A model generated the notes under the pieces. It was not told the origin of the DNA. It saw nothing but the letters and a program-made list of their open reading frames with translations, and did not search any database. Shown piece by piece: positions 4,386-36,959 of a stretch of DNA of 64,000 nt; positions within the stretch are counted from its first letter, which is position 1, and every line of letters starts with the position of its first letter. The position numbers and the translations under genes were made by a program. The stretch spans positions 558,001 through 622,000 of the forward strand of contig CP120455.1 of the NCBI GenBank assembly GCA_034226945.1, written 5' to 3'. This DNA comes from Picochlorum sp. SENEW3 (Eukaryota).

Positions 4386-4644
4386 ATGCAAGACAAGGAT
4401 TATGTGCAGCACCATATTGAAAAGGATGGAAGTCATCTGTGGTCACTGTTGAGCAATAAAAAGAACCCTGGGTACTTGTATATTTGCGGTGATGGAAAGC
4501 ATATGGCAAAGGATGTGAATCGTGTGCTTCATCATATTGTGGAGAAGGAAGAAGGGTGCTCTGGAAATCAGGCGGAGGCGATTGTGAAAAAGATGGCCGA
4601 TCAGGGTCGGTATCTCAAGGACGTCTGCAGACACCAGCTGGTGA
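4386..4644 (+). pseudogene. NADPH-cytochrome P450 reductase C-terminal fragment
   Basis: Sequence KDYVQH..YLYICGDGKHMAKDV..GRYLKDV. No upstream FMN/FAD domains. Removing 4628-4640 restores the terminal DVW-stop. Confidence 0.8.
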
Positions 4645-4764
4645 AGAGGCATTGTTGGAGCGTGTGTCATTGATTTTTTTAATTCATTTGATTTTATTTC
4701 GTACCCTTCTTCGAGTAAAAAGGTAGATACTGAAGTAGAATATAAAATTCCAGTAGGACTATTA

Positions 4765-6423
4765 TTATTCTTCCTCGTCGTCGCTATCATCCTGCGGCAC
4801 ACACTCTACACTAACATCCCACCTGCTGCCAGGAGCGCTAGAGGCCACATATTTGACAAATCTCATGAGTCCTTCATCGCGCAAAACAATGCTGATGGCG
4901 TTAAAGGCTGCAGAGATATTCAGAACGCCAGACTCGTCATCCTGTGCTTGTCGATACACTTCTGCTGGGCCATCCTCTTCTTCATCTGCAAGCAGATATG
5001 CTTCAAACCCGCCGCACTCTCCATCAGCCCAGGACGATTCGTCCATGGATGCTTCATCAACAAAGGTCAACACAACATCGAGACGAGGATCTTTGGTCAA
5101 GATACCATAATGCGCGACTGTATAATCTAATCCTGGTCGAAATCGTCGTATTTCTCTACGGTTCACCCCATCCATGGTCAATGTAGTGAAGCTGCGGATC
5201 AGGTTGGCAAACGGAACACTACATATAACCTTATCACAGAGCTCTCTCATTGTACTTCCTAACCGCCTATGCGTGGATTCCTGTGTTGATGCATCCCCAG
5301 TGAACTCTAGGTAACGTTGCATATGCGCCGGCCCTCGCAATGTCCAACCATCCTTCATCCCGGCATCATAGGCAGGCCTCTTCCCATGACCAACACCATC
5401 CTCTGCATCTATCTGTAGCATATCTCTCTGCACTTTTTCCGCAGTCTCCTCATTCAAAATATTTATTAAATGAATTGACCCATCACATGCAAACTTTTCC
5501 TGAATCTTTGCGGTTCCCCTTCCATCCAAGTACATGGGATTGATCCACTGCTTCAAATACTCGGCATCCTGGGCAGAAATTGTATACGGCTCATCATCTC
5601 CAACCACACGTTCAGTTCCAGACACGGACATGAATTCATTATACTCTTTAACAGAATTTCCTTTATCACCTCCACCACGCGATTGAAGCATTTGCAGAGT
5701 AGGCAACGCCGCATTCTCCTCCTTATCTGGCAATGGCCCATGAAACCAGCCCTGAAGACTCATCCGTGGCTTTTCATTCGTCATGACTTCCTGAATCGAA
5801 TGAAAGCTCTTCCCCGGCTGCACTTTAAACATTGCCATAGTATTCCAAATAGGTAACGCTGTAGCTGTCGGAATAGGATACGGCACCTGGGGTGCCTCTG
5901 GATCCTCTGGGTACAGCTCCAATGCGCCCCCATCCTCCTCACTCCAACCTTTATCAGGATCTGTCAGGTAAATAATATACGACACACGCCGATCCCCAAT
6001 CACATCATCATGACACAGCAGATGACCACCTACAGGATGAATATTACACGCGCAATCTGTCGTATCCGACAACTCACCACACCCTGTAATCTCTGACACA
6101 AACTCTCGAAACTCCTTGGAATATACCGCATCCCGCAACGCCAGCAAATTAGGAATCTTCTTTTTCTTTTCATCATCCAATGCATTTAAATTCGCAAGAT
6201 CCACTGTCTGTAACATTTTGAACAGATCAGTCTCCTTGTACGTAGCATCAAAATTCTCAATAATTTCCTCCCGAACCCTTCTCAGAATAGCATCATCACA
6301 AAAGTCTTTAATGATGCAATGTGGGTATGGATCATTCTGGCCATAGGCGTCTTTCATACTCCTGTACTCGTCTGAATTCCTATCAAATATCCCTTGACGC
6401 ATCACATGCGTCGCATCCATCAT
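4765..6423 (-). CDS. OGFOD1: Prolyl 3-hydroxylase OGFOD1/Tpa1 (2OG-Fe(II) dioxygenase acting on ribosomal uS12)
   Basis: Motifs HLLCHDDVIGDRRVSYIIYL, SFHSIQEV and RMSLQGWFH. C-terminal Ofd1 domain (RRFRPGLDYTVA, VLRDEGLMRFVKYV). The ATG at 6423 is preferred over the TTG at 6468. Confidence 0.9.
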   Translation of the reverse strand: MMDATHVMRQGIFDRNSDEYRSMKDAYGQNDPYPHCIIKDFCDDAILRRVREEIIENFDATYKETDLFKMLQTVDLANLNALDDEKKKKIPNLLALRDAVYSKEFREFVSEITGCGELSDTTDCACNIHPVGGHLLCHDDVIGDRRVSYIIYLTDPDKGWSEEDGGALELYPEDPEAPQVPYPIPTATALPIWNTMAMFKVQPGKSFHSIQEVMTNEKPRMSLQGWFHGPLPDKEENAALPTLQMLQSRGGGDKGNSVKEYNEFMSVSGTERVVGDDEPYTISAQDAEYLKQWINPMYLDGRGTAKIQEKFACDGSIHLINILNEETAEKVQRDMLQIDAEDGVGHGKRPAYDAGMKDGWTLRGPAHMQRYLEFTGDASTQESTHRRLGSTMRELCDKVICSVPFANLIRSFTTLTMDGVNRREIRRFRPGLDYTVAHYGILTKDPRLDVVLTFVDEASMDESSWADGECGGFEAYLLADEEEDGPAEVYRQAQDDESGVLNISAAFNAISIVLRDEGLMRFVKYVASSAPGSRWDVSVECVPQDDSDDEEE

Positions 6424-6924
6424 AGCGTTCTTCTCGAGAGTCAAAACCAGTCTTTTTTCTCGTGCCAACCTCGGCGCAGAATCTCGCTTCTCTTTGATTT
6501 ATATATCGTTTTGAAATATATATCAACTGATATCGTTCACAGTGATTGATGAGCGTTGAAGAACCGAACAAAGCAAAGCACGCAACAACACAAATGGCAT
6601 GCGCTTCGTCTCACGCTATCTTCTAGCCTTGATACAATCTCCTCAATTCAAGAATCCCTGATGAATTTTAAATAAATAGTTTGCAATATGTATTCCAAGG
6701 GGCTGGTGTATCGCTGTTACATGTCTCCATCGACTCGAGACACAAATCTGCTGGATGGGACACGTCACCTGTGTCAAACAAAGCTCTGTTTTGCGGAACA
6801 GAGTGTCATGCTGATCTCTCAGGCAGGAGAAAGCCAGCATCCTATGCTCTTTCTGAGATTTACAACACCATTAATGCTACTACTGGGGTGCCTTTATGGT
6901 ATAATCAATCTAGAAGAGTTTTCC

Positions 6925-8065
6925 CCTCATGCATGATCATGATGGTGCATGTACGTGTGCTCGCAATAATTCGGGATCCCGAATTGATCCGTCCCGGTTT
7001 GAATTTGTTGCATGGTAGTTACGTCGCGTTTGTGTCTCGAATCGCCATAAACACTATTATATATTTAACAACTTTTCAATATGACTGATGCTATTTTGAT
7101 TGATGTTATTTTGGATAAAAGCATGAACATAAACCTTCATGACTTTATGCGATGGCAAGATTCTACCTCATACCTGCGCTCGAGTGTCGCGGATCAGCTT
7201 TTCAAACTTGGAAACAAGGTGGCATTCGTAGAAGCGCAAGCAATCGCCATGGTGAAGAAGGTCTGTGCTGAGTATGTGAAACCAAATCATGGGAACCTAA
7301 ACGCTGAGACCATAGTGCGGCTGGAGTCCGAGGAAGGATGGGACTGGACAGATGGTGGCAAGGAATATCTGGCCGACCGTCGTAAGTATTTGGCCCTCGG
7401 CACGTGGATTATTCTACAGAGACTCGAGTATGCATCGACAAATCATGGCCGCCTCTCCGCATGGCATATTCAAAAGCTCCAAAAGCTTCGTGGGTGGAGA
7501 TGGTCTGGTAATTTTAGACTTTCCGAGATTAATTTGATGGGCTCCTGGATAGAAAAGCAGCGTCGAGAGTACGCCAAACCCAACCACGGTCATCTATCCA
7601 AAGTAGACGTTCGGAAACTGGAATCATTTCCAGGATGGACATGGAGCGGTCCACTCGGCTGGAGAGAAGAAGCAACACGCACTCAGAAATGAGAGCACAG
7701 AGTTCTTCTTCTTTCAAAGAGTGAATTCAACTATGTCTGTCTGTATTTCGTCTTCATATGCGAGCATATGAGGATTATATATGTTTCAAAGAGAGAGATG
7801 TGCAATGAAGATTCCACCACTGTGGCGGTGAGATGATGAACCAAGAAGAGAACACCATGCATGCATGAACGCCGAAGAATACATCATGCAACTGAGGCAA
7901 TATACCTCAGCAGAGGATTTCATATCTTTTTACTCTATCCATGAATGCATGAAATTTGTAATGAAATGAACGACGTTAGTGTTACTGTCAACCAAATGTG
8001 AATCTGTGGCTGAATAGACATTCTCTCTCAATTCTGTGGCTGGGGGAACGCCGCTATGGACTCGC
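6925..8065 (+). repeat. Direct repeat copy 1 (~1.1 kb), left border of the NRPS island
   Basis: 6956-7053 is identical to 20811-20908 (98 bp). Similarity continues through the ORF and ~370 bp of 3' sequence. Confidence 0.9.
7081..7692 (+). CDS. Helicase-associated (HA) repeat protein, copy 1
   Basis: Three repeats of W-I-x-x-QR-x-EY...NHG-x-LS...KL...GW-x-W, resembling the HA (PF03457) motif. Intronless, with no helicase domain. Confidence 0.7.
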   Translation: MTDAILIDVILDKSMNINLHDFMRWQDSTSYLRSSVADQLFKLGNKVAFVEAQAIAMVKKVCAEYVKPNHGNLNAETIVRLESEEGWDWTDGGKEYLADRRKYLALGTWIILQRLEYASTNHGRLSAWHIQKLQKLRGWRWSGNFRLSEINLMGSWIEKQRREYAKPNHGHLSKVDVRKLESFPGWTWSGPLGWREEATRTQK

Positions 8066-8200
8066 ACAAATCTGGTGCTGCTAGTCGACGTGCATAGTGT
8101 ATCTTCATGCATCACAATCCCACTGATAAGGTTCTCTTATACGTCTGATGTCGAGAAACCCTGTTCTTTGAAAGGACTCTAGAGATGCTCTTTTCCACAG

Positions 8201-11200
8201 TTAGGGATCCTGCAGAAAGCACATATACCTCATGAATAAAGGGCATAAACTCCTCGATGAAGCAGAATGAATGCACAGAAATGTATAAGACGGACTTGTT
8301 AGAGATATGAGCTCGTCTGAATGCTTCAAACTCATCGTCTTTTCCAGAATTCTAAGATTTAGAATCTTCAATCTGGCATATGGCACTGCTGGAATACCTT
8401 TCCAGCAGTTCGACCTTTCGATCCTTTCGCCCTGCACGAATGACAAATCAAAATTCAAGATTTGGCTGTCACATTAAAGAAGATAGCATTAGGCTGGGGG
8501 CATCGTACCTTCAATACCAGGGATAAATGATCGACCTGAGAGTCCGCAGACATGCTAGAGCCAGGTAAAAGTGTTGTCCGTGATCCAACCCATGCTTGAT
8601 TTCCTATTTCTGTTTTGATGTGTTCAATTACCTGATTTTCAAGTGTATGTCCACTTATTACTGATTCTTGTCCAATGATGGATCTATCGCCGATTTGGAG
8701 GAGGTCCATTTCAACCCGACGGAATGAGAAATAGCAAACATTCTCACCGATTTTTGCCCCCAATAGGCGTGCCCACCAAACAAGCCAGACGGATCCCCCA
8801 AGTTGATTAATCAATGAACATTGAAGCATAACATTTGTCAAAAGAATCCAGGAAGTATAATGGTAGGAATAAAATGGATGGACTGATGTTGTATATTTCC
8901 CTGCAAGTATCCATTTCAGACAGAACATGATGAATGCCTGCACGAACTCCCCAATGACAAATACTGGAGGAAAAATGAGAAGATACCAATATATTGAAAC
9001 CCTTCCATCCGCAAGCATTTTTCTGAACGCCCACAAAAGCAAGAATATCGAGACAACAGAGCAATATGTAAGCACAGGTTGGCAGACAGTCAATGCCACC
9101 TGTGAAACCCAATATCTGCGAAGCAGATCTTTTGGAGGCGTCTCTTCTTCCTCTGGTATATTGTTTTCCCGTAAATGCTTTGCTGGAGCACCAACCCAGA
9201 CAGTTCCAGATTTGAACCTGCTATTGGGTGATGCATATGTCATATCACCAAGAATGGAGTAACTTTCAACTGTCACTCCTTTTTCTATGACAGCAGAGTT
9301 AGTAACAGCAACTTTGGAGCCCATTGTTACACCCCATTCGAGGAGCACATTTGCCGCTATTTCAGTGTCATCTCCAAGACATATCAAGTCTGGCTCAGCG
9401 CAGTGAGTGAGTCTAAGCATGGGTCTCTTCCCTATTTTTGCTCCTAGCAATCTTAAATACAACGACATCCATACCGTGCCACTTAAATGAACCCATAAAA
9501 CTTGTATAGGTGCATCGCTCATCAATCTCGTCATGGCCCAATGTCTAAAAACTGTCCATGATGTAGGGACCTTACTCCTGGGTGGCCTACCAAGGACCAG
9601 ATGTTTAAGCAGAAGAAATTGAAGGTAGAAAACGTGCGGCATAAGGTAGAAGACAAATATTGGCATTAAAAGCATGATTGAAAGCCAAAACGTTTGTCCT
9701 ATGGGTGCTCGAATCAAATCAATGAAATTTCCCTCAACCTTGACACCATTGTCATATTTTGGCATCAGGCCAGTGTATAAGCCATAAGCACAGGCACAAA
9801 CAGTGCACAGGCAGATGACATACATGCATGTCAAGACGATCAGAAAGGTACATTGGAGAATTTTCACCAATGGAGACCGCAGGATTTTGGCCTCAGCTGT
9901 CAGTTCAGTCTGGACATTTGCACCTGAGCCAGCAAGTGCTTCATCATATTGCTTTGCATTTGCCGTTGACATCGGAGGAACCGCTGTGTTTTCTGGGACC
10001 CGAGAACCCCCTGGGACGAAGCATCTTTTTCCCAAATAGCAACCTTTGCCAATTTGAATCGGCTGAATTACCAGTAAACCTCCAGCTTCTATAGTTGCAG
10101 GCTCAATGGCAGCACCAGAATCAATTATGACGCCATCTTCAATGACCACCAAATCAGGCTCGTATATTGTTGCCCAGCTCTTCATCGTCACATTTTTACC
10201 TATTCTTGCACCAAAAAGTCTTAAAACGGCCGAGTGAAAGCACGTTTCTTGTAAAGAATTCGACCAAAAGTGCACAACATCCATGACTCTTTTAGACATC
10301 ATCCATCTGCAGTAGTAGAAACTCCAAAGAGGGTATTTACCCGGCTTGATTCGACCCCACATGATAATTCTCAAAATAAGCCAGCAAACAATAAACAGCA
10401 ATGGAAGGTCTATCATTACAACGGCGATTGCAATTCCTATTGCAGGCCAGGGGCCGAACCATGCCCAGCATTGCAGTATGACTGTTATAGATGGTAGGAC
10501 TACAGCTACCTGAATGGTCGGCCTAATGAAGAAGGACACAAACTGCATAATAATTGGCAGTACAGAATTCGAATCATTTGAAGACCATGCAGAAACAGGC
10601 TTGATTTCAGCTGTAGACTTTCCATCTTCGATCCCAAGGGTTTTCATTAGTGCCGCCAGCGACCTTACAGTTGGTGCATCATAAAGAGACGTTGAAGGAA
10701 GCATATCTGCATCCATTTCTGTTCGAATTGAACTGATCAAAATACCGGCAAGTAGTGAGGATCCTCCTATTTCCCAGAAATCATCAGTGACCCCAACATC
10801 AGTCACGTCAAGAATGTTTTCAAAAAGTTTCTGTAGCTTCTCTTCCAAGGCACCCTCAGGAGCAACATATTCATTTTTACCTTTCGCTGCTTGAACATCA
10901 TCCCATTTGGGCGTTGGAAGTGCTTTTGTATTTGCTTTACCTGCATTTCAATATCTCAATATAATAACTAGGAATGCAGTGAGCGAGATTGGCAGACCAG
11001 CAAAATATCAAACTTGCCTGTGGGAGCGAGGGGAATTTCATCCAATGTGATCATGACAGCCGGGACCATGTATACCGGAAGTTCTGCACGCAAATGCTGC
11101 ATGCATTTGTCTACTTCTATCTCAGACTGCAGGTATTAGAATATGTGACGGCAAGTTGTACAATGTCTCGTTTAAATCGTTTCTCGGCATACCTTGGGGG

Positions 11201-14200
11201 AACAATAGACAACAATTTGGTCTTGACTTTTTGGATCTTTTTTCACAAGTGCAACTACCTGTTTCACACCATTGCATGCACTTACAACAGACTCAATCTC
11301 CCCTAGTTCGATTCTGTAACCTTTTATTTTCACCTGATTGTCAATACGGCCCAAGAATTCAATGGAGCCTCCAAATCTCCATCTGACTAAATCACCAGTT
11401 TTATAGCATCTACCACTGTGAAATGGGTTATCGACGAATTTTTCAGACGTCAATTCCTCTTTCTGAAGATATCCACGTCCAACACCATCGCCGCCAATGA
11501 TCAGTTCACCGGGTACACCAACTGGGACTGGCATCAAGAATTTGTCCACAATATATGACTTGTAGTTTGGCATTGGGCCTCCAATAAGAACAGATGTATC
11601 ACTGGGTAGCTGCACTTGTGCGTTGCTACCGACTGTTGTTTCAGAAGGTCCATACGCATTTATAAAGCAGGGCACAGCGGCTGCCCATTTCTGCATGAGT
11701 GCAAGGGAACATGCTTCCCCAGCAGTCACCACCACTTCCAGACTTGGGTACATGTGGGGGTCCATTGTTCCTAAAACAGATGGCACGGCCCCAAGATGGG
11801 TCACTTTATATCTTTTCAAAGCCTGAGTCCAGTCTGGTGGTGTCCACAATATCAATGTAGCCCCTACCGCCAGACAAGGTAAGATATCCCCTGCATGAAA
11901 GCAAACAAAATACTTGGTAATCTAAAGGCGAGCTTTGCATCTATGGCATTGCACCAAATGGAACGTGTTATATTATGTTCAAAGGCGATGCAGTAGAACA
12001 GAAAAAGGTGAAGAACAAATCGCCACTTGCCTTGGGCCCCATCAAATCCAATTTTGAAAAATTGGAACTGCCTGGCATCTTTATGGATCCTGTACGTGGC
12101 AGATAGAGCGTGAACCATATTTATCGCGTTACAATGCTCAATCATCACTCCTTTGGGCCTTCCAGTGGTTCCACTTGTAAAAATTACGTATGCCAAATCG
12201 TTTTGAGTGGGCTTCACATGGCTCAACAGACCTGTACACTTTTCCTCTTCCTCAAAAATCCTTTCGACATCGAGCAGGATGACCCCTTTAGATATATCTG
12301 AAGACAGATTCCTGAACATATACTTCGAGGAAATCAAGAAGTTTGTCTCGATGTCTTCCATGATGTACTTGATCCTTTGCTCAGGGTAAGTTGGATCGAT
12401 CGGGACAAAGGCAGCACCTGCTCTTAATACTGCTACCTCTGAAACGATAAACTCAATACTTCTGTCTAGCAGGATACCGGCTATTTTCCCTGGCCCGATG
12501 CCGTGTTTTATTAAGACATTAGCAAGCTTGCATGACAATCTATCCAGCTCTCCATACGTAATCTCTCGACCATCATGTGCAACAGCAGGGTGATCAGGTC
12601 TGGATCTAGCTGCATCAATGATGACTTCATCCAGGGTTTTTTCATAAGAAACACTGATATGGTTATCATTCCACACATTTAAAACCAAATTTTCTTCCTC
12701 TTTCGTCATTATAGGAGCAGCCTCTGCTTTGATTGCTGGATTTGAGCAAGTCTCAGAAAGGAGCACATTGAAATGGGATGCAAACCGCTCAATAGTGTCC
12801 TTGCTGAAAAGGTCTGTGCAATATTCAATGCGACATTTTAGCCTATTTTCATACTCTGTTATCTCAAGTGTGAGATCAAATTTTGATGCAGTACTAGATG
12901 TCACCTGGAATCTTGAAAACTCCATAGTATCACTCACCCTTGTGGGCTGAGACTCTGCACGTTCTTGCAGGACCATCATGACTTGGAAAATAGGTGGATG
13001 TGAAGGGTTGCTGTCCCCCAACTCCTTGGCAATATGTACAAAACTGATGCCTGAATTCGAGAAGAGATCCAAAATAGTTCCTTGTACCCTTCTGAGGACT
13101 TCAGTAAACGAAGGATTTCCATTCAGGTCGGCTTTCACTGGTAGGGGGTTGACAAAATATCCCAATGTCTCCTCCACACATTTATGGTGGCGACCAGAGG
13201 TTGGAGTTCCAACAGCAAAGCATTTTTGCCCCGAATATCTAGAAAGCTGTATCTGAAAAACAGACATCAGGGCCACAAAAAGAGTAACCCCGTTCTCTGA
13301 AGCCACCCTTCTTATCAAATCTACGACGTCTTCTGCAACTTCAAAAGCATACAGATCACCTGAAGTGGATTGAATGGATGGCCGGGGGAAATCAATTGGC
13401 AGCTGCAAGGTCTCTATATCGCTAAGCTCCTTCATCCAAAATTTCATTTGATTTTTCATCACTTCAGAATCCAGAAGCTTCCTCTGCCAAAATGCAAAAT
13501 CAGTGTAGGAAACTCTCTCTGCTCGAAAAGCAAAAGAAGATGGATTACGAAGTCCATACAAACAGGCCAAATACTTTTGTATGAGAAACATGGACCAGCC
13601 GTCCGTGGCTATATGATGCATTACCAAGAGAAGGATGTGGTGGTTTTCACCAAGCTTTAGCAGTGTTGCTCTCACTGGTGGACCCAATCCCAAGTCAAAG
13701 GGTTTAGAGGTCAGTTTGGCAATAATCTGATGCAGAACCTTTGTGTCATATGGATTGACAGAAATAGTCGTAACATCCATTCCTTGGTACTCATCTGAAC
13801 TCAGAACCACAGGCTGATACCTCCCAGATGTTAGACTGAAGTATGTCCGGAGGGTCTCAAAGTTCATCCCAAGGAATTTTAAGCAGTCCTTCAATTTCTC
13901 GGTATCCAATGGCCCTTTCATATCAATACCAAAAGGAACATTATACGAAGAAGATTTAGGATCCAAGTGATACAGAGCAAGCATCTGTTCCTGTCCAAAA
14001 GACAAGACAAACTCCTGTCCTTGAAACGACTTTGCTACCTCTACTGGAGATTCATACTGTAATTGATCACCATTGATAACCCATGCTGCCAGATTTCGAA
14101 TTGTTTTGTTCCTTAAAATATCCGCGACATTGATCATCTTGTTTTTAAACTCTTCTTGCATAGCATACGCTAATCGAGCAGCTTTGATTGAGTTCACCCC

Positions 14201-16033
14201 AAATTCAAGTATGTCATCTGTTACACCAATGTTGGTCAGACCCAGCTCTTTCTCCCAGATTCGTGTGATTGACTCTTCCAAAGGGCCTTGGGCAGGCACC
14301 AAACTCTTCTTCAAGATTTTTCTTGCATCCAATGTAGTTGCATCGATAATCGGCCTCACCCCACTAGACACTAGTGATGAAAAAATAGACATACGGATTA
14401 TTTTATTGGTCGATGACCTGGGGAGCACTGACACATCATCAATGACATAAATTGAAGCCGGGACTTTGAAATCAGGAAGCATTTTTTTGCAGTACGATAG
14501 GACTGAATATGCCAAATTAGAATAATCATCGCCGTTACGCTTGGGCACTAGCACAAGTCCAACATCTTGTCCAAGCCATTGATCTGGTATTGAAAAGCAG
14601 TACGACTCTGCAGCACATTGACTCATATAGACAGTGTCTTCGATTTCAGTTGGTGAGATTTTCTCTCCTCCTTTATTGATAATTTCCTTTACTCGTCCAG
14701 TAAGTGTTAGATATCCTGCTTGGTCCAGATAGCCGAGGTCACCTGTTCTAAACCATCCATTGATGAAGGCATTTTTGTTTACTCCGTGGCCATCATCCAG
14801 GTAGCCGTCAAATACACTACCACCTTTGAGACAAATCTCACCGATCTCCCCAGTTTCTTTCTCCTTAAAGTCGTTTCCGCTATCAAGATCTAATATACAA
14901 ATTGAAATGGATCCTACGGGGATTCCCACAGAACCTGGGACTTTCTTTTGTGGCGTGAGGGGATTGGAGCACACAACAGATGCTGCTTCTGACATTGCAT
15001 AAGAGTTGATCACTCTAATACCCATTTTACTCTCGATTTCCAGTTCAATAGTTGAGCTCAAAGGTGCTGCAGCACAGCGAAGAAATCGTAACTTGCTTCC
15101 TTTGGGCATTCGAGACTGCTTGGACATATCAATACTCCATCTATCCAAAAGTGCAATGTAAAATGCTGGCACTCCTGTAAACCAAGTGACCCCCCTGCTG
15201 ACTACTTGGTCCCAAAATACCGATGAATCAAAAGATACTGGAAATACCAATTTGCCCCCTGAGCACAGGGTTGTCATCAAAGCAGGGCCAAGACCGCCAA
15301 TGTGAAAAAGAGGCATGCAGTGTAGATGGGCATCCTCCTGTCCAAGATGATAAAATTTGGCGAATGCCGTGACAGCGTCTGAAAATGCCCTGTGAGTAAT
15401 AGGAACTCGTTTAGGCTTGCTGGTGGTCCCACTGGTCAGAAGAAGAATTGCAACATCGTCCCCTGACGAAGTCCCCTGATCCAGGAACTGCTCCATTTCC
15501 TCTGGAAGTGCAGTCGTCAGTGCTGAGTATTTCCTGGTCAAACCACGCCTATTTACCTGGGACGTGCTTCTAATTAGGCTTTTGGATTTATAATTTCTAT
15601 TACCTTCTGTGCACAGAGTGATGGGCAGTATAGGATCTCCCTTCAAGATCAATCCAGCCCGTATCACAGGAATGCCCAGCCTTTTGGCTGCCTCAACTCC
15701 ATTATGCACATTGAGGGAACTTTCATCGGGTACAATCAGACAAGCCGCGTTGTAGTCATTCAGAGTATGCAGAAAACTCTCTTCAGGTATGGCATTGTTG
15801 ATTGGGGCGTATACATGACCCATCACCACGCCTAAAAATACGACAACGTCCTCCACGTGGTGCCCTGGGGCAGTGGCTACAACCTGTCCAGAACTTATTC
15901 CATATTCAAGCAACTGCTGATGGATAGAGCGAGCTAGATGGTTCAACTCCATATATGATAACGATATTTCGCCATTATCAGTTTCAATTGCCACTCTTGG
16001 CGAACACGTTATCAGGCTAGCTACAGAGGTCAT
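8201..16033 (-). CDS. Multimodular NRPS (~2490 aa): acyl-CoA-ligase-like A1-T1-C-A2-T2 plus Pls/PosA-type terminus (3x TM + left-handed beta-helix)
   Basis: A1: TSGTTSKPK, PLFHIGGL, YAMSEA, GWFRTGDLG, GGEKISP. T1: GVNS. C: HHIATDGWS. A2: TSGTTGRPKG, NAYGPSET, YKTGD, QVKIKGYRIELGEIE. T2: GGSS. Terminus: three LxGAKIG/hexapeptide blocks ending WxGxPA. Introns at 11891-12030 (GC-AG), 11127-11192, 10941-11017 (GC-AG) and 8432-8508 all restore the frame. Confidence 0.9.
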
Positions 16034-16389
16034 ATTGTAGCAAAAATCACCTTCCCAATCGAACTAGCAAAACAGTCGTAGTCCGAACGCCACCAGTGGA
16101 TCGAATATGATATATTGACGGGGACTTAAGACGTGATCTAAATCCAATGTCTTCGTATACAAACGTGATTGCTCTTTGGGAGCGAGATTTCCTGCAGGAA
16201 ACCAGCGAACGCGCTTGTGGATAAAATTCACCGTGCAAACAAAAATGGCCATTTGTGCACCATATCAGGCATTATAACACAGAAAGATTACCTTTTCGAC
16301 TATTATTATATTATGAATTCTAATGCATCGTCTTAGACACATGACGTAAATTTGCAAACCACGCCACGACTGATGACGTTATGCATCGA

Positions 16390-16411
16390 CGTGCCTAGCA
16401 TGCTAGGCACG
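16390..16411. promoter_or_regulatory. 22-bp perfect palindrome plus an adjacent CACGTG in the divergent NRPS/tyrosinase intergenic region
   Basis: CGTGCCTAGCATGCTAGGCACG followed by CACGTG. The regulatory role is inferred only from position. Confidence 0.35.
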
Positions 16412-16619
16412 CACGTGCACGAGCCATCCGTTTACAGGATGGCCTGCGAGTATGATTCATGGACAAAAATGCATAGCACTGACTCGAAATGTGACATGCT
16501 CTATTTCATATCTAATATCAATTCTTTAGTCAAAGGCGTTAACTGGAGTTGTCCAGACTCGGTGCAACCTTTGAGGTTTCCACTGCGGAAGTGATACGTT
16601 CTCAGCGTTTGCGTTCCAT

Positions 16620-18455
16620 ATGAAGATGGGGCCTTCGTCAAAGTATGCGTCTTTTGCTTTGATTTCTTTGTTATTTGCAGCCGTCTTTCCCATTGGAGGA
16701 GAGACCCAGGCAGCCTCTGTCTCGAGGCCGACTGCAGGTCTCTGGCCAAGGGATATTTCTCCTCGTTTGAATATCCTTACCATGCTTGAGCCGGAGCATA
16801 AGGTTGAGTTTGATTTGCTGGTGCAAAGCTTGACTGCCATACAAAACATGTCTCCAGAAGATCCCAGGTCATTCTTCGCCATTGCTGGCATTCATGGCAT
16901 GCCATTTGAGGAGTACAACTCATCAACAGTGCCCGGATTTCAATGGACACCAGACATGCCTCCACCTCAGTGGGGGGGATACTGCCACCACGGCGATGTT
17001 CTGTTCCCAACATGGCACAGAGCATACATGTTACAGATTGAAAATTCCATTCTGGAACAGGCAACTTTGATCGCTAGGACATATCAAGATGAAAACGTGA
17101 AGAGGGACTACTTGGAAGCAGCAAATCGGCTTCGATTCCCATTCTGGGATTGGGCAGATGATGTGACAGCAACAGAGGGTATACCTGATGTATTTACAAA
17201 CAAGACGCTAACAGTGAATCTGCCACCATATAATCTGCCCACGCCAGTAGCCAACCCGATGCGTGCCTTCTCGTTTACAAAGAGTGTTGGGACACCTTTT
17301 GGAGTTGGTGATCAATACAATCCTCAAAATGGAGCCTTATACACAGTGCCGCCTGGCCATATTTATATGGCTCCAGGATATTCTACAGTAAGGCAGCCTG
17401 TATTTGGATATGCAACAAATGATACAATGTTGAACGAATCAGTGAAGATTTCTGCGGCAACCACCTTCATCCCAGGCCTGTACGATCTGTTCCAGGTTCC
17501 AGATTTCAGGGTGTTCTCGAACCATTATGCCACTTCGCCAATCAAAGGAAATCAAAATGCAACCCAATTTTTATACTACGCGTCTTTGGAGGGATTACAT
17601 GACAGTATCCACAGGGCTGTGGGTGGATTGGGAGGCCACATGAGATTCAACACCATGGCTGGATTTGACCCAATTTTCTTTTTCCATCATTCTAACGTCG
17701 ACAGAATTTTTGCTTTATGGCAGCGTATGTACCCAGATCAATGGATAAAACCATCAACTGCTATTCAAGGGACATTTACTGTGCCATCAGGGTCCACTGT
17801 TGATGAGAATACAGCATTGATGCCATTTTACGCCCCATCAGGCAGTTACTATGTCTCAACTGATCTAAGAGATGTTACACAACTAGGTTATACCTACCCA
17901 GAACTTATGAATGCTGATTCGAAGGGGATTGGCTCTGTTGAATTTCGCAAGGAAATATTGAACCAGTATCGACCAAATAAGGAAGACGCGTTCACCACTC
18001 GCTGGTATCTGGGATTGAGGGATGTTACAGCAAAACAGCTTCCTGGTGCATTTAGCATCCACGTTTTCATAAATCCAGATGAAACTCCGACAATAGACAC
18101 TTCATTGCAGAACAATCCAAATTATTGCGGATCTGCTGATTTCAGTTCCGGCAAAACTACTGCAGTCCAGAAGTTTGATGGTCAGGTATCTCTCACCAAG
18201 TGTTTCGTCAACCTATATTTGACAAAGTATCCAGTTATTGGCAACCCAAGCACAGCAAACATCACAGATGCTCTTGCTACTTTGGCAGGCTACCCATTGC
18301 TTTATTCAGATCTCTACTATGTGATTGAAGGCTCTGATGGATCTGACTTTTCTGAGTACGTCACCATGTCTGACAATACCATATTTTATGTTTACGAGCG
18401 AGGAGGTGAGACATATAGAAATTCAGTTCCCAAAAGGCCAAACGTTATTGGCTAG
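16620..18455 (+). CDS. Secreted tyrosinase (type-3 copper oxidase) with C-terminal shielding-type domain
   Basis: N-terminal signal peptide. CuA: AGIHGMP, YCHHG, FPTWHRAY; also PFWDW. CuB: LHDSIH, FDPIFFFHHSNVDR. LGYTY motif. Intronless. Confidence 0.92.
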   Translation: MKMGPSSKYASFALISLLFAAVFPIGGETQAASVSRPTAGLWPRDISPRLNILTMLEPEHKVEFDLLVQSLTAIQNMSPEDPRSFFAIAGIHGMPFEEYNSSTVPGFQWTPDMPPPQWGGYCHHGDVLFPTWHRAYMLQIENSILEQATLIARTYQDENVKRDYLEAANRLRFPFWDWADDVTATEGIPDVFTNKTLTVNLPPYNLPTPVANPMRAFSFTKSVGTPFGVGDQYNPQNGALYTVPPGHIYMAPGYSTVRQPVFGYATNDTMLNESVKISAATTFIPGLYDLFQVPDFRVFSNHYATSPIKGNQNATQFLYYASLEGLHDSIHRAVGGLGGHMRFNTMAGFDPIFFFHHSNVDRIFALWQRMYPDQWIKPSTAIQGTFTVPSGSTVDENTALMPFYAPSGSYYVSTDLRDVTQLGYTYPELMNADSKGIGSVEFRKEILNQYRPNKEDAFTTRWYLGLRDVTAKQLPGAFSIHVFINPDETPTIDTSLQNNPNYCGSADFSSGKTTAVQKFDGQVSLTKCFVNLYLTKYPVIGNPSTANITDALATLAGYPLLYSDLYYVIEGSDGSDFSEYVTMSDNTIFYVYERGGETYRNSVPKRPNVIG

Positions 18456-19206
18456 ATGACGTTACCCTAATTAAAGGTAAAGGAGCTTCACGCTTGAAAA
18501 GGCATCCCGTGGTTCCTCAACCCATCCCACAAGAGATGGGTGACAGGAATTGTCCTGCAGATGTCCCTATCCCTGCAGGCATGTTTATCAAGATGCCACA
18601 GAAATGATAGTGCATGGCATCTGAAATTTTATTTCCCAATAATATATCAACGCATTTATGAAAACCTTAAATTGCCAAAAGATTCGAATGATGATGCAAA
18701 GAGATTGATTACACGAGAATTTACAACTATACATGATCCTCCTCAAGTGCATGCAGCATGGCTGTCACAATGGTGCTGTTAGCCAACATGAAACATATCA
18801 GGCTTCCATGTGCAGAAAGATCGATCAAACTGGTCTAGACCTGATGAGATCCGTATCTAGATCGATCCAGCATCATCGATCGGATATACGATGATGCCAG
18901 CTGGCATCCCTAGCCTGCAGGCTAGGGAGGATCCATATTTCATTCGAAATGCTCCATTTAATGGATCATATATTTCTTGTCGGATTTGAACCTGCGAGGG
19001 CTGAAATTGCTCCTGATTTTTTCACCATATCGTATTGATACTATAGGGTTGTTCTTTGGCGGACAAAAAAGGCATTTAATCTGCCAGAGTTTCCGTTTGG
19101 ACTGCACATCGATCGAGCCTCTGACGGACGGAGGACTTTCATAGTGCATTTGGCCTCTCTTGGCCACGATTAGGTTTTGGGTAGTCGTGGATTTGATTTT
19201 ATAGAG

Positions 19207-20624
19207 ATGATAGACTCATCACTGGCCACGGACCACCACATGCAGCTTGATCCAGTGACAGCTCAGTTGCTGGACACAACTGACACGCCTACCGAGCGGG
19301 CTATCAAGGTGAAAGAGTTCAACGAGTACTGCAACAAATGTATTAATGACATAAGAAAGTGTTTGTCGCGGCAGTTGGAGAATATGGCCAAAAAGCGCAA
19401 GGAAATGTTCGGTGAGGACCACTTGGGCAAGGTGAGAATTCATGATGTGGTCTGCCATGTCATCCATCCCGACGGTCCGAGCGCCGTTTTCACGAGTTCC
19501 GCGTTTGACCACGGTGCGTAGTTTGATAATTTCAACACCATCAATACGGAAAGTCCGTGAGGTGCTTCTGACAGTTGCTTTGGGTGATTGCAGAGTTGGT
19601 CAAGGAGCGCATGGTGCAGATTACCAATTTCCTGCGCTCTTGGCAAGAGGTGTACACGACCATTCTTTTTCAAGGAGAAGAGAGATTTGTGGGTAGTGTC
19701 TCTGATCCTGCCGAGATGTCGGACCACGAAGCGCTTGCCAAGCTGCTGAGGGAACAGAAGATGAAGTTGGAGGAAGAGGAGATGCAGAAATTAAAGAGTG
19801 ATCAGAGTATACGGACTGGTGTGGAACTCTTCGGTACGCAGCGCGCCATATGCTGACCGATATTAGTGTATTAATACAACCTATATGAACGCAATGAATC
19901 GTTTTCATATTATTGTGCAGTATCTGCGGGAGTGGGAAAGGATGAAAGTGTGCCGTTTCAGAGTCGAGTTGAACAACTGGCTACAGTCCTCTCAGTGGAA
20001 CCGGCGGATATCGAGGGCGATGCCAAGCGAACGTTGAAGTACGGGGTCACTAAAAACCTTTATAAAGTTGCTGCACAGAAATCCGTTGGTTTGGACTTCC
20101 ACAAGACGATGGGCGAGTGCCCATTGTACAATGAGACAGCAGATGGTCAGGAGGACAAGTGTGAAAAGTGCGCACGCGCCAGGAGACTTGTTGGCTGGCC
20201 AGGCAGACTGAAGCGCGAATATGTGAACCCAAAGCACGGGGAAAAAGCATACGAGTACAAATACATTCCCTTTATTTTCCCCTCAAAGCTGAATGCGACT
20301 GTCAAGCAGATGCTGGTTCAGCATTTCAAGAAGGAACTCCCCAGTGTGTGGGCGGCATGCAAGGGTCTGCACCACGATGGGCAATCTCCTTCAGCGGATG
20401 ATAGTATGTCAGTGGAGGCTACACATGGGGATGGAGGTGACGTTATCAGCAAAAATCGACAACAGATAGGAGGAGGAAGGGAAGGGAGGATCCCAGATGG
20501 CCGGCAAGGGCCTCGGGAGAAGGAGCGATCACCCAACGATGCGGGGCAGGGGTTGGAAACGATGTCTGAGAGAAATCATCAGCTTTTAAGAAAGGCAAAG
20601 CGCCCCTTGGAGGAAGGCCAGTAG
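19207..20624 (+). CDS. Hypothetical 3-exon protein
   Basis: ORFs 19177, 19575 and 19932 join in frame through introns 19514-19593 and 19834-19920. Cys cluster (CPLY..CEKC). Start uncertain. Confidence 0.6.
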
Positions 20625-20794
20625 TGTCCGTGGCGAGTGCACAGCAATGACAGTCCTTGGTTGTTCGCTCGTCACTGTTTTGAGCAATGCATTCATAGTT
20701 ATTCAATGAAACTTGTAATGAAAGGCTTGGAAGGGTGAGTCCCACCTCCTCTTTGAATATGACAATATCAATCAGAACGTTGCTGGCAAAGCCA

Positions 20795-21910
20795 CCTCAT
20801 GCAAGATGCATGTGCTCGCAATAATTCGGGATCCCGAATTGATCCGTCCCGGTTTGAATTTGTTGCATGGTAGTTACGTCGCGTTTGTGTCTCGAATCGC
20901 CATAAACAGTTTTATATACAGTATATATTAAATATATTGCAACTTTTCAATATGACTGATGATATTTTGGATAAACGCGTACCAATATTCCATCGTAATA
21001 CTGCGCTCCGGCACGGTTCTACCCCATACCTGATCTCGAGCGTCACGGATCCGCTTCTCCAACTCGAAAACGAGATGGAATTGCAAGAAGCGAAATCAAG
21101 CAACCTGGCGAAGATCGCCTGTGCAGAGTATGCGAAACCAAATCATGGGAATCTAAGCGCTGAGATCATAGCGTGGCTGGAGTCCAAGGAAGGATGGGAC
21201 TGGACAGATGGTTGCAAGGAGTATCTCGCCATCCGTCGCATGGACCTGTCCTTCGGTATGTGGATTAATCGACAAATGCTCGAGTATGCATCGACAAATC
21301 ATGGCCGCCTCTCCACATGGCATATTCAAAAGCTCCAAAAGTTTCGTGGGTGGAAATGGTCTGGTAATTTTGATACTGACGACATGGAGCCGCTGGCCTC
21401 CTGGATAGAGAAGCAGCGTCGAGAGTACGCAAAACCCAACCACGGTCATCTATCCAAAGTAGAGGTTCGGAAACTGGAATCATTTCCAGGATGGACGTGG
21501 TCCGGTCCACTCGGCTGGAGAGAAGAAGCAACGTGCACTCGGAAATGAGATTACAGAGTCCTTCTCTTCTTTCGAGGAGTGACATCAAATGTGTCTGCAT
21601 CCCGATTGCTTTTGTAAACGAGAAAATAAAGAGTACATATTCAAGAATTACAGATGCGCCGAAAGGAATCAATGTCATGATGACGAACCAAGAGAACACC
21701 ATGGCATCCAACATGCCTGCATGAATGCCAAAGAGAACATCATGCAACTGAGACAATATACCTCAGCAGAGGATATCATATCTTTTTACTCTATCGATGA
21801 ATGCATGAAATTTGTAATGAAATGAAAGATGTTAATGTAAATCAGATGTGAAACTGTGACTTAGAGACTCCTCTCAATTCTGTTACTAAGTGAACGGCTT
21901 GATAGACTTG
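20795..21910 (+). repeat. Direct repeat copy 2, right border of the NRPS island
   Basis: Collinear with 6925-8065. Shares the AATTCGGGATCCCGAATT palindrome and the 3' block ATGAATGCATGAAATTTGTAATGAAATGAA. Confidence 0.9.
20952..21548 (+). CDS. Helicase-associated (HA) repeat protein, copy 2
   Basis: Paralog of 7081-7692 with a near-identical C-terminus (EYAKPNHGHLSKVxVRKLESFPGWTWSGPLGWREEAT). Confidence 0.7.
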   Translation: MTDDILDKRVPIFHRNTALRHGSTPYLISSVTDPLLQLENEMELQEAKSSNLAKIACAEYAKPNHGNLSAEIIAWLESKEGWDWTDGCKEYLAIRRMDLSFGMWINRQMLEYASTNHGRLSTWHIQKLQKFRGWKWSGNFDTDDMEPLASWIEKQRREYAKPNHGHLSKVEVRKLESFPGWTWSGPLGWREEATCTRK

Positions 21911-22321
21911 CCTAGAGAAGAAAGATGCTACTGCTATTTCCCACACAAACGATACTGAAGGGTTTTATATACCATGATTCAAGATACCAGCCCTTCTAAT
22001 CGCTTCCATGCCATTTGAATGAAAACAAAGACAGGGAAGAAGTTGCCTCTACTGAATTACTTTGTCCAAAGTCGTTCAAATTTGAATACACCATGGGAGA
22101 TCATGGCATGCATATTTCCCACGAATGTCCACATTTTGATAGTATTAATCAAGATAACTAAACATACGAGTGATCCTGTGGCCGGATAGAGTGGACGCTG
22201 AGGGAGACTGCGTCGGAATTTGAACTGCTCGACGTGATTCAAGCTCCGTGCATTGCATACACTCAACGTGTGCTAGCAGCGTTTGTTATTTTTCATATTA
22301 TATTTACATATAAAAAGAAAT

Positions 22322-24427
22322 ATGGTGGAGACGGAGCGTTCTGAGGTCCTGACTGGCGTGGCCATGGGGACCCGAGGTGGCGTGGTGCGTCGTTGTTCGT
22401 TTTCCAGTGCCGTTGGTGCTGAATTAGCAGTAGATGAGTGGATTTAAATCATATAGATGCATTCATGTCGTCATATACTTGAGAGACTGGCAATTTTGGG
22501 ACTGAATGTTTCTTTGCGTGATGTGCAGATGGAGGGAAGCATACAACTTAGTTCAAAAGGTATCGTGTGGAAGCGAAGCGGCGGAGGTAAGACGGTCGAA
22601 GTGGCATCTGACGATATCAAACGTATGATGTGGACAGAGATGCCGCGTATCGAAAATTCTACAGGGGTGAAATCAACGGTGCTAGTGGTAATTCGAAAGG
22701 ATGCCAATGGATCTGTGAATTTCATAGGATTTCCAAAATCCAAGCTAGCCGCACTTCAAACCATGGGACTAGGTGAAGCCAAAGAGACAAAGTTAACGAC
22801 CAAAGGCGCCAACTGGGGCTCTATTGAGATGCAAGGGGCGAATGTCATTTTTAAGAATGGGGACATGCCTGTTTTTGTCGTCCCTCTGTCAGATGTGTTG
22901 CAAGCACAGCATGGGCGTGAAGAAGTAACTGTTCAGCTTCCAGTGGATGATCAATCTGTGGATCGTAATGATGACGCCTTGGCTGGATTGTCCTTCTATG
23001 TGCCCAAGGCATGTGAAGATTTTGGCAAGGCTGAAAAGGATGGTGAAGAGTTGCCTGCTAGTAAAAAGTTTTATGATGTTTTGAAATCGTACACCATGGA
23101 TGTTGGGGCAGGTGATATCATCGCATCGTTTGACTCTGTTGGTGTGCAGCTTCCAAGAGGCAGATTTGATGTGGAGATGTATCCATCAAGTTTTCACTTG
23201 TTGGGTCAGGCACACGATTTCAGAGTGCAGTACAGCTCTATATTGCGTATTTTCATCTTGCCTCGATCAAATGCACCGCAGACTATTGTGGCAGTGGCGT
23301 TGGATCCACCATTAAGAAAAGGACAAACAACATACCCCATGGTCCTGTGTCAGTTCCATAATGATGAAGAAATGACCATAGATTTGCAATTGAGCGAAGA
23401 ATCTTTGAAGAAATTGAACGATAAAGGAGCCAAGTTGACGAAAGAAATGACTGGTCCCTCCCCGGATGTGTTTGCCAAGACTCTGAGGGGTCTGTCTGGA
23501 GCCAAACTGACACGCAATGGTGCATTCAGGGATGCAACAGGGGAAGGGCATGCAGTTCGTTGCTCGTACAAGAACGACGACGGTCATTTGTATCCTTTGG
23601 AAAGAGCGTTCTTTTATCTGTTGAAGCCACCCATGTTGATTCCATACGACGATATTCGAAGCGTGGAGTTTATGAGGCAGACAACAGGTATATCTGCTGC
23701 CAAGACGTTTGATCTTCTGATAAAGATGAAAGGTGTTGCTGATGATGTACGGGAGCAGCAATACTTATTCCGAAGTATTCCTCGATCAGAATGGACCAAC
23801 TTGTTCGAATGGATTCAGGCCAAGGATCTCAGAGTCGAAAATCTGAAAGAGGTGCAGAATGGTCCATCAGCTCCAAGCCCCTATGGAGAAGGCATGGTTG
23901 GCATCGATCCTGCTCTTGCGGCAATTGATGCACAAGAGAGTGATGAAGATGAATACGAGGAGCCAGACGAAGACTTTGAGGCTTCAGAAAGTGAGAGTGA
24001 TGGTGACGATAGTGTTCTGTCTGATGAGGAGGGAGCACCAGATGTTGTTCCAGAGACCAAACCAAAGCGCAGCAAGCCAGTGTCAGAGAGAGAGGGTGGC
24101 AAAAAGAAGCGCAAAAAGAAGGATAAAAATGCACCCAAGAAGGCATTATCTGCGTTTATGTGCTTCTCGAACAGCGTGAGGGAGAAAGTCAAGGAAGACA
24201 ACCCTGGTATTGCATTTACCGATGTTGCCAAAAGGATTGGAGAGATGTGGAAAGAGCTGAGTGACGCAGACAAGGCTCCATATGAAGCTATGGCCAACGA
24301 AGACAAGGAACGATATGCCAAGGAAATGGCCGCATATAACGCTGGGCAGACCGAAGCAAAGCAAGAGGAACCGAAAGAAGAGGTGAAGACTGAGCAAGAG
24401 GACTTTTCCATCAAGGATGAACCATAA
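22322..24427 (+). CDS. SSRP1: FACT complex subunit SSRP1
   Basis: Motifs GANWG, PRGRFDVEMY and LDPPLRKGQTTYP, an acidic tract and an HMG box (DKNAPKKALSAFM). Intron 22385-22528. Confidence 0.95.
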
Positions 24428-24444
24428 CTTCCTACACTTCATCA

Positions 24445-25781
24445 TTACATGCCAAAATGTTTTAATATATTTTCCAATCGTTCATGGTCATCTTTATCAG
24501 TACATCCTTTGCCAAAGTGATGCGCATTCACGCCCCACACGCTTGCAGACAAGGCATCCTTCTTCCTGAGACACCCCACTGTCCCGTCAATGGAGACGCG
24601 GGCATCTGCATACTCTGTCTTATAATTACCAGCATGAGTCACATTGACATCAACCTTTTCAACAGTGGAATCTTCTAATACAATTCTATCTGCCTCTTCC
24701 TGAGAAATACAGTCTCCGCCAGTGTATAAAATATCCCTGTCATCCCACACACCACCATTCCAACCACAGGACTGAATACTTGGAGAATGCACAAACAAAC
24801 ACTCCTCCTCCACTCTTTTAATCTTCCACCCATCCTGTAGCAGCTCTTGAAACATTAAACCATCATTATGGGATTCGTCAACACCATAATCATAGGTCAA
24901 TTCACCAAAGTACCGATACTCTTTCATCAGACGAGTCCTGTTGATGGCCACAGACCCCAGATCAACTTGGCACCACACCATGTTGTTCCGTTTACAGTTA
25001 TGCCCATGGTTATACTCTGGGGTAAATCTATCACAAGGAGGCATCGTGGGACGATTAAATCTGCTATAAAAATCAAAACTCACCAAGTCTGTATCCTCAT
25101 CCGCTGTTGCAAGGATGGTTGAGATGAAACTACGACCATAGAGGTTATCCCCATTCGTCACCACAACCCATGTCGTCGATGGACTACAAAGACGAATCGC
25201 ATCATCAGTCATATTATACAGGGTACCATGGTATCCATTCGCCCAAGCACCATCAATTTTGGGAGTATAGTCCTCACCAATCTACACAAGTAAAGACACA
25301 TCACATGATTTATAGTATAGTATGTACTTGCCATCGTCTCGATACGTACCCACTCAGCGAAAACCCACGCCCTTGTCTCGTTCATACTCTCAAGAATAGT
25401 GTACATCTCTGGAAAAGGCTTCTTGTCAGCAACCACAAACACAGCTTCCCAACTGCATTCAACAGACCATGGACAGTAAGATTGACACATTCACACTCCC
25501 ACGACAGCACCAAGCACCTACTTTTGCTCATCCTGATCTTGTAAAGACTTCAAGAATGATCGTAATTCACCCCCATGCTCATCTCCATGTCCCCAATACG
25601 TCCTCACAACGAAACACACAGATGGTGGAACTGGACCACCCACTGGCCCGCCAGTCTCCACAGCGCACGATCCTGGCCCTTCAGAAGATGCAGAGCACGT
25701 ATCGTTATTACCACTAACCCCGTTAAATACAATAAAATACGTGAGAAGAAGCAGAATCTGGGCATAAAACAGTCGACTCAT
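24445..25781 (-). CDS. Secreted/type II membrane glycosyltransferase-like hypothetical protein (multi-exon)
   Basis: Hydrophobic N-terminus, VCFVVRTY first strand and a WVVVTNGDNLY DxD-like motif. Three ORF pieces are separated by short introns. Confidence 0.55.
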
Positions 25782-30719: not shown

Positions 30720-31254
30720 ATCGTTATCAGACCCTTATATACACGTCAATGGTCTCAATCGAGCGCTCTTGGAATGTTTTCGCTCATGGTTTCAAAAACC
30801 AATTCCTCTCCACATGTCTATCCATCTTCCAAAACAATACACGAATGTCCAAATACAGTCCTATAAAAATCAAATATTACATGTAGATGTACAGATGGAG
30901 CGTGTCGATGCCTAGGCCAAATTCAAACGCACGCCTGTCGATCGATATCCGACTGGCCCATTAAATCAACCATCTGATGGTACGCATAGTTTCTCAAGAG
31001 TATGGCATCCGCATAGTAATAGTCTTGCATGGATTCAGAGCATGATGAAAAGAATTCTATTTTTAAAACACAACTGCATATAGGTTATTCTCCTTGCTGA
31101 TGCCCTACAGGCTGCACAAGTGTCATGCCAGCGTGGAACGCAATTGAATTTCACAAGAGCAGGGAATGGCATCTATATGCAAAGGAAAACGATTGAAAGT
31201 ATCTATAGAATTTTACAAAAGAGGTGGACGATAGATTGGAGGTGTAGAGAGGCG

Positions 31255-36659: not shown

Positions 36660-36904
36660 TATTATTATTATATGTATTAAATAATGTATAATTGTATATG
36701 CGAGTATACAGCAAATGCATGAAGACATGCGTGGATGACCATATCGAGGCAGAGCCACAAACATCCACTTGCATGAGGACCTGCATGGCATTGGCTGGCG
36801 AGCAACTCATGCTGATGAATACAACCAGACACCACGGATGGCATAATGATGGGATTTTATGATCAGCATAGAGGAGATTGAGTGATTATTAATCCCGTCA
36901 CCAT
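36660..36904 (+). repeat. Direct repeat A, copy 1 (~245 bp)
   Basis: A ~98-bp core (36770-36868) is near-identical to 39411-39510; the flanks are more diverged. Confidence 0.9.
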
Positions 36905-36959
36905 ATAGATTTAAAAATACAAACAGATGTATGTGTGCTAATGATCTCAAGTATGAGCT

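Follow-up and report, generated by a model that had tools for sequence, protein, structure and literature searches.

Repeat-mediated variants are exemplified by the deletion of RHD between the Rhesus boxes and by tandem resistance-gene arrays. Composite transposons and Starship-type elements carry accessory cargo, the captain of a Starship being a tyrosine recombinase, and nonribosomal peptide synthetases (NRPSs) of the Pls/PosA type have a single A-T module in front of their tail. The locus described here shows partial likenesses to these systems. It lies in a stretch of 64,000 nt (hereafter, the window) from Picochlorum sp. SENEW3 (GenBank assembly GCA_034226945.1, contig CP120455.1, positions 558,001 to 622,000), where an island holding an NRPS gene, a tyrosinase gene and a third gene, referred to as gene U, is enclosed by two direct repeats encoding helicase-associated (HA) repeat proteins and flanked by the housekeeping genes OGFOD1 and SSRP1. 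The NRPS-tyrosinase cluster is an optional, repeat-bounded presence/absence variant, and we consider it reasonably probable that it sits in a tandem HA array between OGFOD1 and SSRP1 and is lost through host recombination between HA units. Genome-wide comparisons were made with the SENEW3 assembly (13.85 Mb, 14 contigs).

The repeat pair and its cargo

Two repeats in the same orientation were aligned by BLASTN (6956-8050 and 20811-21896) with 79.6% identity over 1119 columns; local alignment extended them to 6925-8083 and 20795-21936, with a spacing of 13,855 nt. From DNA self-comparison, copy 1 (HA unit type 1) was delimited to 6925..8065 and copy 2 (HA unit type 2) to 20795..21911, both on the + strand. 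As the original prediction had stated of these ~1.1-kb repeats, each carries an intact open reading frame (ORF) of three HA-like units: HA-repeat ORF 1 (7081..7692, +) encodes 203 aa with three short units, and HA-repeat ORF 2 (20952..21548, +) encodes 198 aa. The copies are, however, far more diverged than the expression 'direct repeats of an element' implies. Identity along the pair is a mosaic, ranging around 70-80% in the 5' third of the ORF and reaching 90-98% in much of the 3' half. A 5' non-coding block (6956..7063, +; 108 nt) is 98% identical to 20811-20918 and includes, 5' of the HA ORF, an exact run of 98 nt common to both copies; it is a candidate tract for crossover or conversion. 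A 3' non-coding block (7853..7982, +; 130 nt) is 91% identical to 21709-21838. An 18-nt palindrome was located at 6968-6985, within the 5' block of copy 1, and hairpin folding in the conserved blocks did not exceed that of shuffled sequences in both copies (z 0.23/0.07 and -1.95/0.15). The repeat count advised at the outset gave at least two DNA matches in the SENEW3 genome, both being the window copies.

A search with profile PF03457 gave a divided answer, copy 1 (28.7 bits) passing the cut-off of 28.4 bits and copy 2 (23.1 bits) falling below it, the alignments being confined to the profile's second half. The units are of the W...QR.EY...HG.L....L....GW.W type and of half length. The dN/dS ratio between the copies was 1.22, and 2.41 in the N-terminus, neither value being significant (Fisher p 0.43 and 0.08), and the HA frames stayed open in only 51 of 5000 random trials of 102 substitutions. 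Open frames together with a dN/dS near 1.2 suggest that the HA proteins are selected yet fast-changing; they may act as nucleic-acid-binding proteins, a property of Pfam family PF03457. Their AlphaFold prediction (pLDDT 39.9) is an unusable model.

The protein search retrieved five HA clusters among 95 candidates, all consisting of Picochlorum-labelled or unnamed records, and no P. soloecismus name occurred among the five. Ten of the 11 HA proteins aligned (two from the window and eight named ones) lie between OGFOD1 and SSRP1, the remaining one being carried by an unplaced contig of 914 nt. Since every placeable member is located at OGFOD1-SSRP1, the subfamily forms a local array of variable copy number and not the high-copy dispersed family that would have made the placement of the repeats a matter of chance. 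Eight other, distinct HA-domain loci exist in the SENEW3 genome and only one of them reached E 1.5e-4 against copy 1. ESM Atlas feature matches of the HA protein were HA clusters (0.83-0.87) and are leads only; metagenome scans (HA alignment, OGFOD1) and viral scans (HA, tyrosinase) returned no match. On contig C8, near 623,200-625,300 (L003 871-2982), a 703-aa frame contains eight tandem full-length HA matches, presumably of a kind known from giant viruses.

The unique DNA between the copies (8066-20794) amounts to 12,729 nt and contains the NRPS, the tyrosinase and gene U, in agreement with the predicted ~12.7 kb of cargo between OGFOD1 and SSRP1. OGFOD1 (4765..6423, -; PF10637/PF13661) has orthologues M9434_006293, M9435_005366 and NNA_002978, and SSRP1 (22322..24427, +), which has a short first exon, corresponds to M9434_006304, M9435_005369 and NNA_002981. 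The NRPS (8203..16033, -; ~2490 aa, 3' end uncertain) displays an acyl-CoA-ligase-like A-T-C-A-T organization followed by a Pls/PosA-like tail, with introns predicted at 12030-11891 (GC-AG), 11192-11127, 11017-10941 (GC-AG) and 8508-8432. Its condensation domain carries an HHIATDG motif, and its tail comprises hexapeptide repeats, five hydrophobic segments and three stretches matching TIGR02353, although the last long exon scored 226.9 bits against this family, below the cut-off of 423.1. Among the best 150 representatives, relatives of the tail were 24-33% identical, except for one match of 85%, whose cluster contains the NRPS of P. soloecismus. Two other condensation-domain loci were detected in the SENEW3 genome (C8:373315-377987 and C2:468968-470341, the C2 match with one stop), and a scan of prokaryotes with the P. 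soloecismus NRPS gave a single match, from Bacillus (28%).

The tyrosinase (16620..18455, +; 611 aa, PF00264) is intronless, oriented divergently from the NRPS and likely secreted, judging from its hydrophobic N-terminus. It was the sole PF00264 match detected in the SENEW3 genome and is 96.6% identical to M9434_006297 and 87.3% to NSC_06379 of P. soloecismus. Both cargo genes have GC and third-position GC (GC3) contents near those of neighbouring genes; GC3 is higher in the HA genes and gene U. Perfect 22-nt palindromes occur on both sides of the tyrosinase (16390-16411 and 18907-18928). With regard to function, the product of the cluster is probably an acyl-amino acid: module 1 of the NRPS might load a carboxylic acid, to be condensed with the amino acid of module 2, and the product might then be released or polymerised at the membrane via the Pls-like tail. 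Just as tentatively, the secreted tyrosinase could oxidise a phenolic part outside the cell, for wall cross-linking, pigment or defence.

Gene orders in relatives and signs of exchange among HA units

Gene orders in relatives were read from consecutive locus tags of named proteins, not from DNA. Set M9434 of strain BPE23 is filled, with OGFOD1 (6293), HA (6294/6295), tyrosinase (6297), HA (6300), HA (6303) and SSRP1 (6304). The second BPE23 set, M9435, is empty: OGFOD1 (5366), HA (5367), HA (5368) and SSRP1 (5369) have consecutive tags and no cargo. The same holds for P. renovo (OGFOD1 NNA_002978, HA 2979, HA 2980, SSRP1 2981), and none of the five members of the tyrosinase cluster, all of which were read, comes from M9435 or P. 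renovo. The number of HA copies between the flanks thus ranges from 2 to 4 among alleles. These tags support the presence/absence polymorphism proposed in the original prediction, which had expected an empty site or a solo repeat; empty sites were found, but they keep two HA genes. The M9435 contig is 35,993 nt shorter than that of M9434, a difference to which other changes may add. No NRPS was found at this locus without the repeats, the P. soloecismus cluster being unplaced.

The repeats are old paralogues. Copy 2 and M9434_006303, its positional orthologue, were sisters in the HA tree (99/97), with 11 differences over 139 columns as compared to 27-34 between copy 2 and the type-1 copies, so that the duplication predates the strain split. 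For OGFOD1, M9434, M9435 and P. renovo differ mutually by 6-7 residues and from SENEW3 by 8-11; for SSRP1, the corresponding values are 2 and 5. These flank distances, together with the 96.6% identity of the tyrosinases of SENEW3 and M9434, make the filled state probably ancestral and loss simpler than entry, and in this strain group the filled state looks to be the older one. The first HA protein of the empty set (5367) differs from the third of the filled set (6300) at 3 of 139 residues, as expected from a deletion between HA units, and 5367 and 5368 have a private residue in common. Moreover, site 20890/7035, in the 98-nt run, reads T in each SENEW3 copy, whereas the four X14 contigs covering 20890 all have C (X14 being one of the sequencing runs considered below). 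The likeness of 5367 to 6300, the private residue and site 20890 suggest that HA units have exchanged unequally and converted one another. A simple loop-out is disfavoured by the empty sites, which keep two HA genes; as neither of these has type-2 residues, any crossover involving copy 2 would fall 3' of the ORF.

In the favoured model, the HA units would serve as passive direct repeats, their proteins not being needed as enzymes. Host machinery would recombine them, by unequal crossover or within a chromatid, via the short near-identical blocks. Such recombination would alter the HA copy number (2 to 4), homogenise tracts and remove the cargo, leaving OGFOD1-HA-HA-SSRP1.

Several points weigh against this model. 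The empty sites are read from gene numbers, which could conceal unannotated DNA or a collapse in the assembly. In M9434, the NRPS is not among the tags identified, 6296, 6298-6299 and 6301-6302 being unassigned. The BPE23 assembly is a phased diploid one, built from HiFi reads of 18 kb (PMC9615354). If M9434 and M9435 are its two haplotypes, as we infer, the cluster would be hemizygous in BPE23, and probably it is. The direction of change rests on two genes and few residues, four of the eight inner branches of the HA tree lack resolution, and the HA proteins of the empty sites have no type-2 residues, so that no hybrid ORF marks a crossover. An overall repeat identity of 80% is also low for frequent recombination. 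Finally, contigs from four of the 21 listed sequencing runs were compared with 4500-24499 in 30 bins (X14, possibly one of the named strains, not being counted as independent), and all four cover 30 of 30 bins and carry the cargo; therefore none displays a clean empty site. In X14, one contig of 11.4 kb spans the NRPS and the tyrosinase at ~97.4%.

The same contigs include joints from copy 1 to copy 2, namely 7062>21000 and 7709>21565 in X14 and 7845>21690 in X10. The latter two lie where the junction of an empty allele is expected, but these joints could also represent mosaic copies on a filled haplotype, and joints are error-prone at such likeness. Cargo contigs were below flank contigs in depth (ratios 1.15-1.39 and 1.36-1.50 in X14 and X3), a difference that was not counted for hemizygosity since contig depth is not a copy number. 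Word shares of 0.41-0.46, considered at first as a sign of flank-only strains, were rejected as such, the cargo being present in all four runs examined; the low shares are explained by divergence in X14 and by thin cover in X10. No RNA data set appeared among the runs listed.

Complete coverage in the four read sets, and empty sites known from gene numbers only, are what would be expected if these sites were artefacts of assembly or annotation and the cluster were fixed between two old paralogues. We regard this as very improbable. Two separate assemblies give the identical four-gene order, the simultaneous omission of a 7.5-kb NRPS and an intronless tyrosinase is unlikely, and repeats of 80% identity rarely collapse in 18-kb HiFi data such as those of PMC9615354.

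Mobility, gene U and the possibility of gain

The absence of any transposase or recombinase inside the island, claimed in the original prediction, was borne out. Among the 14 ORFs scanned with Pfam, no transposase or recombinase family, including tyrosine recombinases of the captain or integrase kind, was found, and the cargo ORFs matched no reverse transcriptase or integrase family. The repeat ORFs matched only PF03457, which brings no catalytic domain. Searches for terminal inverted repeats or a target-site duplication at the island gave only words of 8-11 nt, at chance level (2.8 shared 8-mers expected); one of them, an 8-mer at 6874/21925, was discarded as a target duplication for this reason. 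The island is accordingly not a demonstrated mobile element.

The repeats had been proposed to bound a composite or episome-like cassette that entered, or can loop out, by recombination between them. The geometry, the 98-nt exact run, the existence of empty sites and the rarity with which HA frames survive random substitution would suit a live element of this type, with the HA proteins as its own machinery. Yet the island has a single location in every placeable assembly, its copies are 80% identical, the HA proteins are devoid of a catalytic domain, and no junction leading from copy 2 back to copy 1 was seen in any of the four contig sets, in which rare forms are dropped. Such an element is hence hardly credible here. 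As to the separate parts of the proposal, recombination between the repeats gains from the signs of exchange and conversion. Entry as a composite element finds no support, given the age of the paralogues, the positional orthologue of copy 2 in M9434, flank distances favouring loss and the lack of terminal repeats and target duplication.

Gene U (19207..20624, +) has three predicted exons (19207-19513, 19594-19833 and 19921-20624), a model backed by a 719-aa homologue from BPE23 on another contig. Its exon 1 matches three distant copies in the SENEW3 genome (E 3e-4 to 8e-4 genome-wide), two of which sit in 7.3-kb elements, 96.5% identical, with a Kyakuja-Dileera-Zisupton (KDZ) transposase. The members of this KDZ family (C4:977524-984831 and C6:571925-579220, with a partial copy at C6:91745-94177) are flanked by exact 8-bp target duplications, end in terminal repeats that are short and imperfect, and carry a convergent accessory gene, of which gene U is a distant homologue. 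With two-sequence profiles searched over 1665 frames, exon 1 of gene U matched at E 3e-7 and exon 3 at E 2e-4, exon 2 giving no match, and the two genes have two introns in common, both of phase 1. None of the 15 matches to PF18758 (KDZ) in the SENEW3 genome, which are on C4, C5 and C6, falls inside the window, and the island has no match to the ends of the KDZ-family elements. Gene U is probably a left-over of a KDZ-type transposon and not a working mobility gene. No Pfam family was found for the two exons scanned, no NCBIfam family for the gene U homologue P0006 and no ESM Atlas match for the homologue; a MADS-like look of exon 1, an impression gained by eye, had no Pfam support and was dropped.

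Further observations concern gene U and its KDZ relatives. In the last exon (20223-20285), as in the BPE23 homologue, a short insert resembles the EY.KP.HG segment found in HA units; it is absent from the KDZ accessory gene. The N-terminus of P0006 belongs to a coiled-coil family and matches an ORF ~1.7 kb from the end of the C4 KDZ element (42%; L040 8522-8989), and a similar C-terminal motif was noticed by eye immediately upstream of the C3:399k HA gene (L010 2-838). Near the partial KDZ copy, at about 86,150-88,800 of C6 (L041 4151-6796), a unit of 808 nt containing an ORF of 256-295 aa occurs three times in tandem, at 99% identity.

A different history can be envisaged in which the block NRPS-tyrosinase-U-HA2 was introgressed or laterally transferred from another Picochlorum lineage into an existing HA array, possibly as cargo of a KDZ-type transposon now decayed, the alleles being shaped afterwards by unequal recombination. 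In P. soloecismus, the NRPS NSC_06377 is 86.0% identical over 2487 columns and lies two gene numbers from the tyrosinase NSC_06379 (87.3%). Outside the near group, no SSRP1 cluster exceeds 76%, the sole exception being an unnamed single-member fragment (90%), and P. soloecismus was not named among the near-cluster SSRP1 members listed (15 of 17, named ones first) or in the OGFOD1 cluster (15 of 15 members listed). Provided that the collection includes the SSRP1 of P. soloecismus, the cargo surpasses a core chromatin gene in likeness, a pattern that would suggest lateral sharing; this hints that NRPS and tyrosinase have been laterally shared between Picochlorum species, although the SSRP1 baseline is an upper bound only, given that no P. 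soloecismus housekeeping orthologue has been identified. Gain is also in keeping with the two exons and two same-phase introns that gene U has in common with the KDZ accessory gene, with its higher-depth paralogues in runs X9 and X3, with the occurrence in the SENEW3 genome of KDZ elements whose 8-bp target duplications are intact, and with the type-2 HA, which differs from every type-1 copy by 27-34 residues and is restricted to filled alleles. Conversely, neither a KDZ transposase nor element ends nor a target duplication was found at the island, the divergence between the SENEW3 and M9434 tyrosinases fits vertical descent, and the five HA clusters include no relative named P. soloecismus. 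We hold a gain of this kind to be unlikely. Its most specific version, in which a KDZ-type transposon, with gene U as its remnant, carried an NRPS-tyrosinase cassette from one Picochlorum species to another, distant one, where it landed in the HA array and is now a hemizygous gain/loss locus toggled by recombination of HA genes, appears decidedly unlikely.

Other features of the window lie outside the island. A Mutator-like element (44270-49772) has terminal inverted repeats of 102 nt (89%), no clear target duplication, split ORFs of transposase-like character that gave SWIM and RNaseH-like matches (46845-49473, -) and a Ulp1 protease gene (45223-46848, +). A direct repeat of 180 nt (88%; 36728-36907 and 39368-39545) surrounds two small genes, and a RecD2-like helicase gene (31084-34751) adjoins a SPO11-like gene (34762-35805), both named by eye.

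Significance and comparison with known systems

No report on this island was found in the open full-text literature, as far as listings and the beginnings of abstracts indicate. In the parts consulted, PMC12366059 gives NRPS counts per genus only, PMC12458973 does not mention NRPS or tyrosinase, and PMC11092101 does not mention NRPS. Recombinational loss of the cluster would amount to a natural knock-out, in Picochlorum strains of industrial use, of an uncharacterised two-module NRPS and of the one tyrosinase detected. The states found (filled in SENEW3, empty in P. renovo and probably hemizygous in BPE23) make the product and its benefit approachable by strain comparison. Accessory variation of secondary metabolism, known from fungi and plants, is hereby extended to a streamlined green alga of 14 Mb, and the locus supplies a locus-bound, rapidly changing family of HA-repeat proteins. 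Lateral sharing, if true, would mean cluster transfer between microalgal species, and travel on a KDZ-type transposon would provide a green-algal counterpart of the mobile biosynthetic clusters of fungi.

Considered part by part, the NRPS resembles the Pls/PosA family (TIGR02353) in that its T domain leads into a tail containing hexapeptide repeats and hydrophobic segments. It differs from the family by its score below the cut-off and by an additional acyl-CoA-ligase-like A-T-C module ahead of the second A-T. The HA proteins follow the unit pattern of PF03457, with three units per protein, but their units are of half length, no helicase accompanies them and their records are confined to Picochlorum-labelled or unnamed entries. 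With KDZ elements the island has in common gene U, as the homologue of their accessory gene, and neither the transposase nor the 8-bp target duplications. Unlike retroelements with long terminal repeats, it has no reverse transcriptase or integrase family between its repeats. Composite transposons and Starships are similar in their patchy accessory biosynthetic cargo, possibly shared between species; the island differs from them by its single location and by the lack of transposase or captain, terminal inverted repeats and target duplication.

The closest resemblance is to presence/absence variants produced by non-allelic homologous recombination, such as RHD with its Rhesus boxes and the tandem resistance-gene arrays. 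As in these cases, unique cargo is placed between homologous units of the same orientation, full and empty alleles occur within a species, and copy-number change and gene conversion accompany them. The Picochlorum locus is set apart by the use of whole, fast-evolving HA genes of 80% identity, containing short stretches of near identity, as repeats, by a microalgal biosynthetic pair as cargo and by the retention of two units in the empty state.

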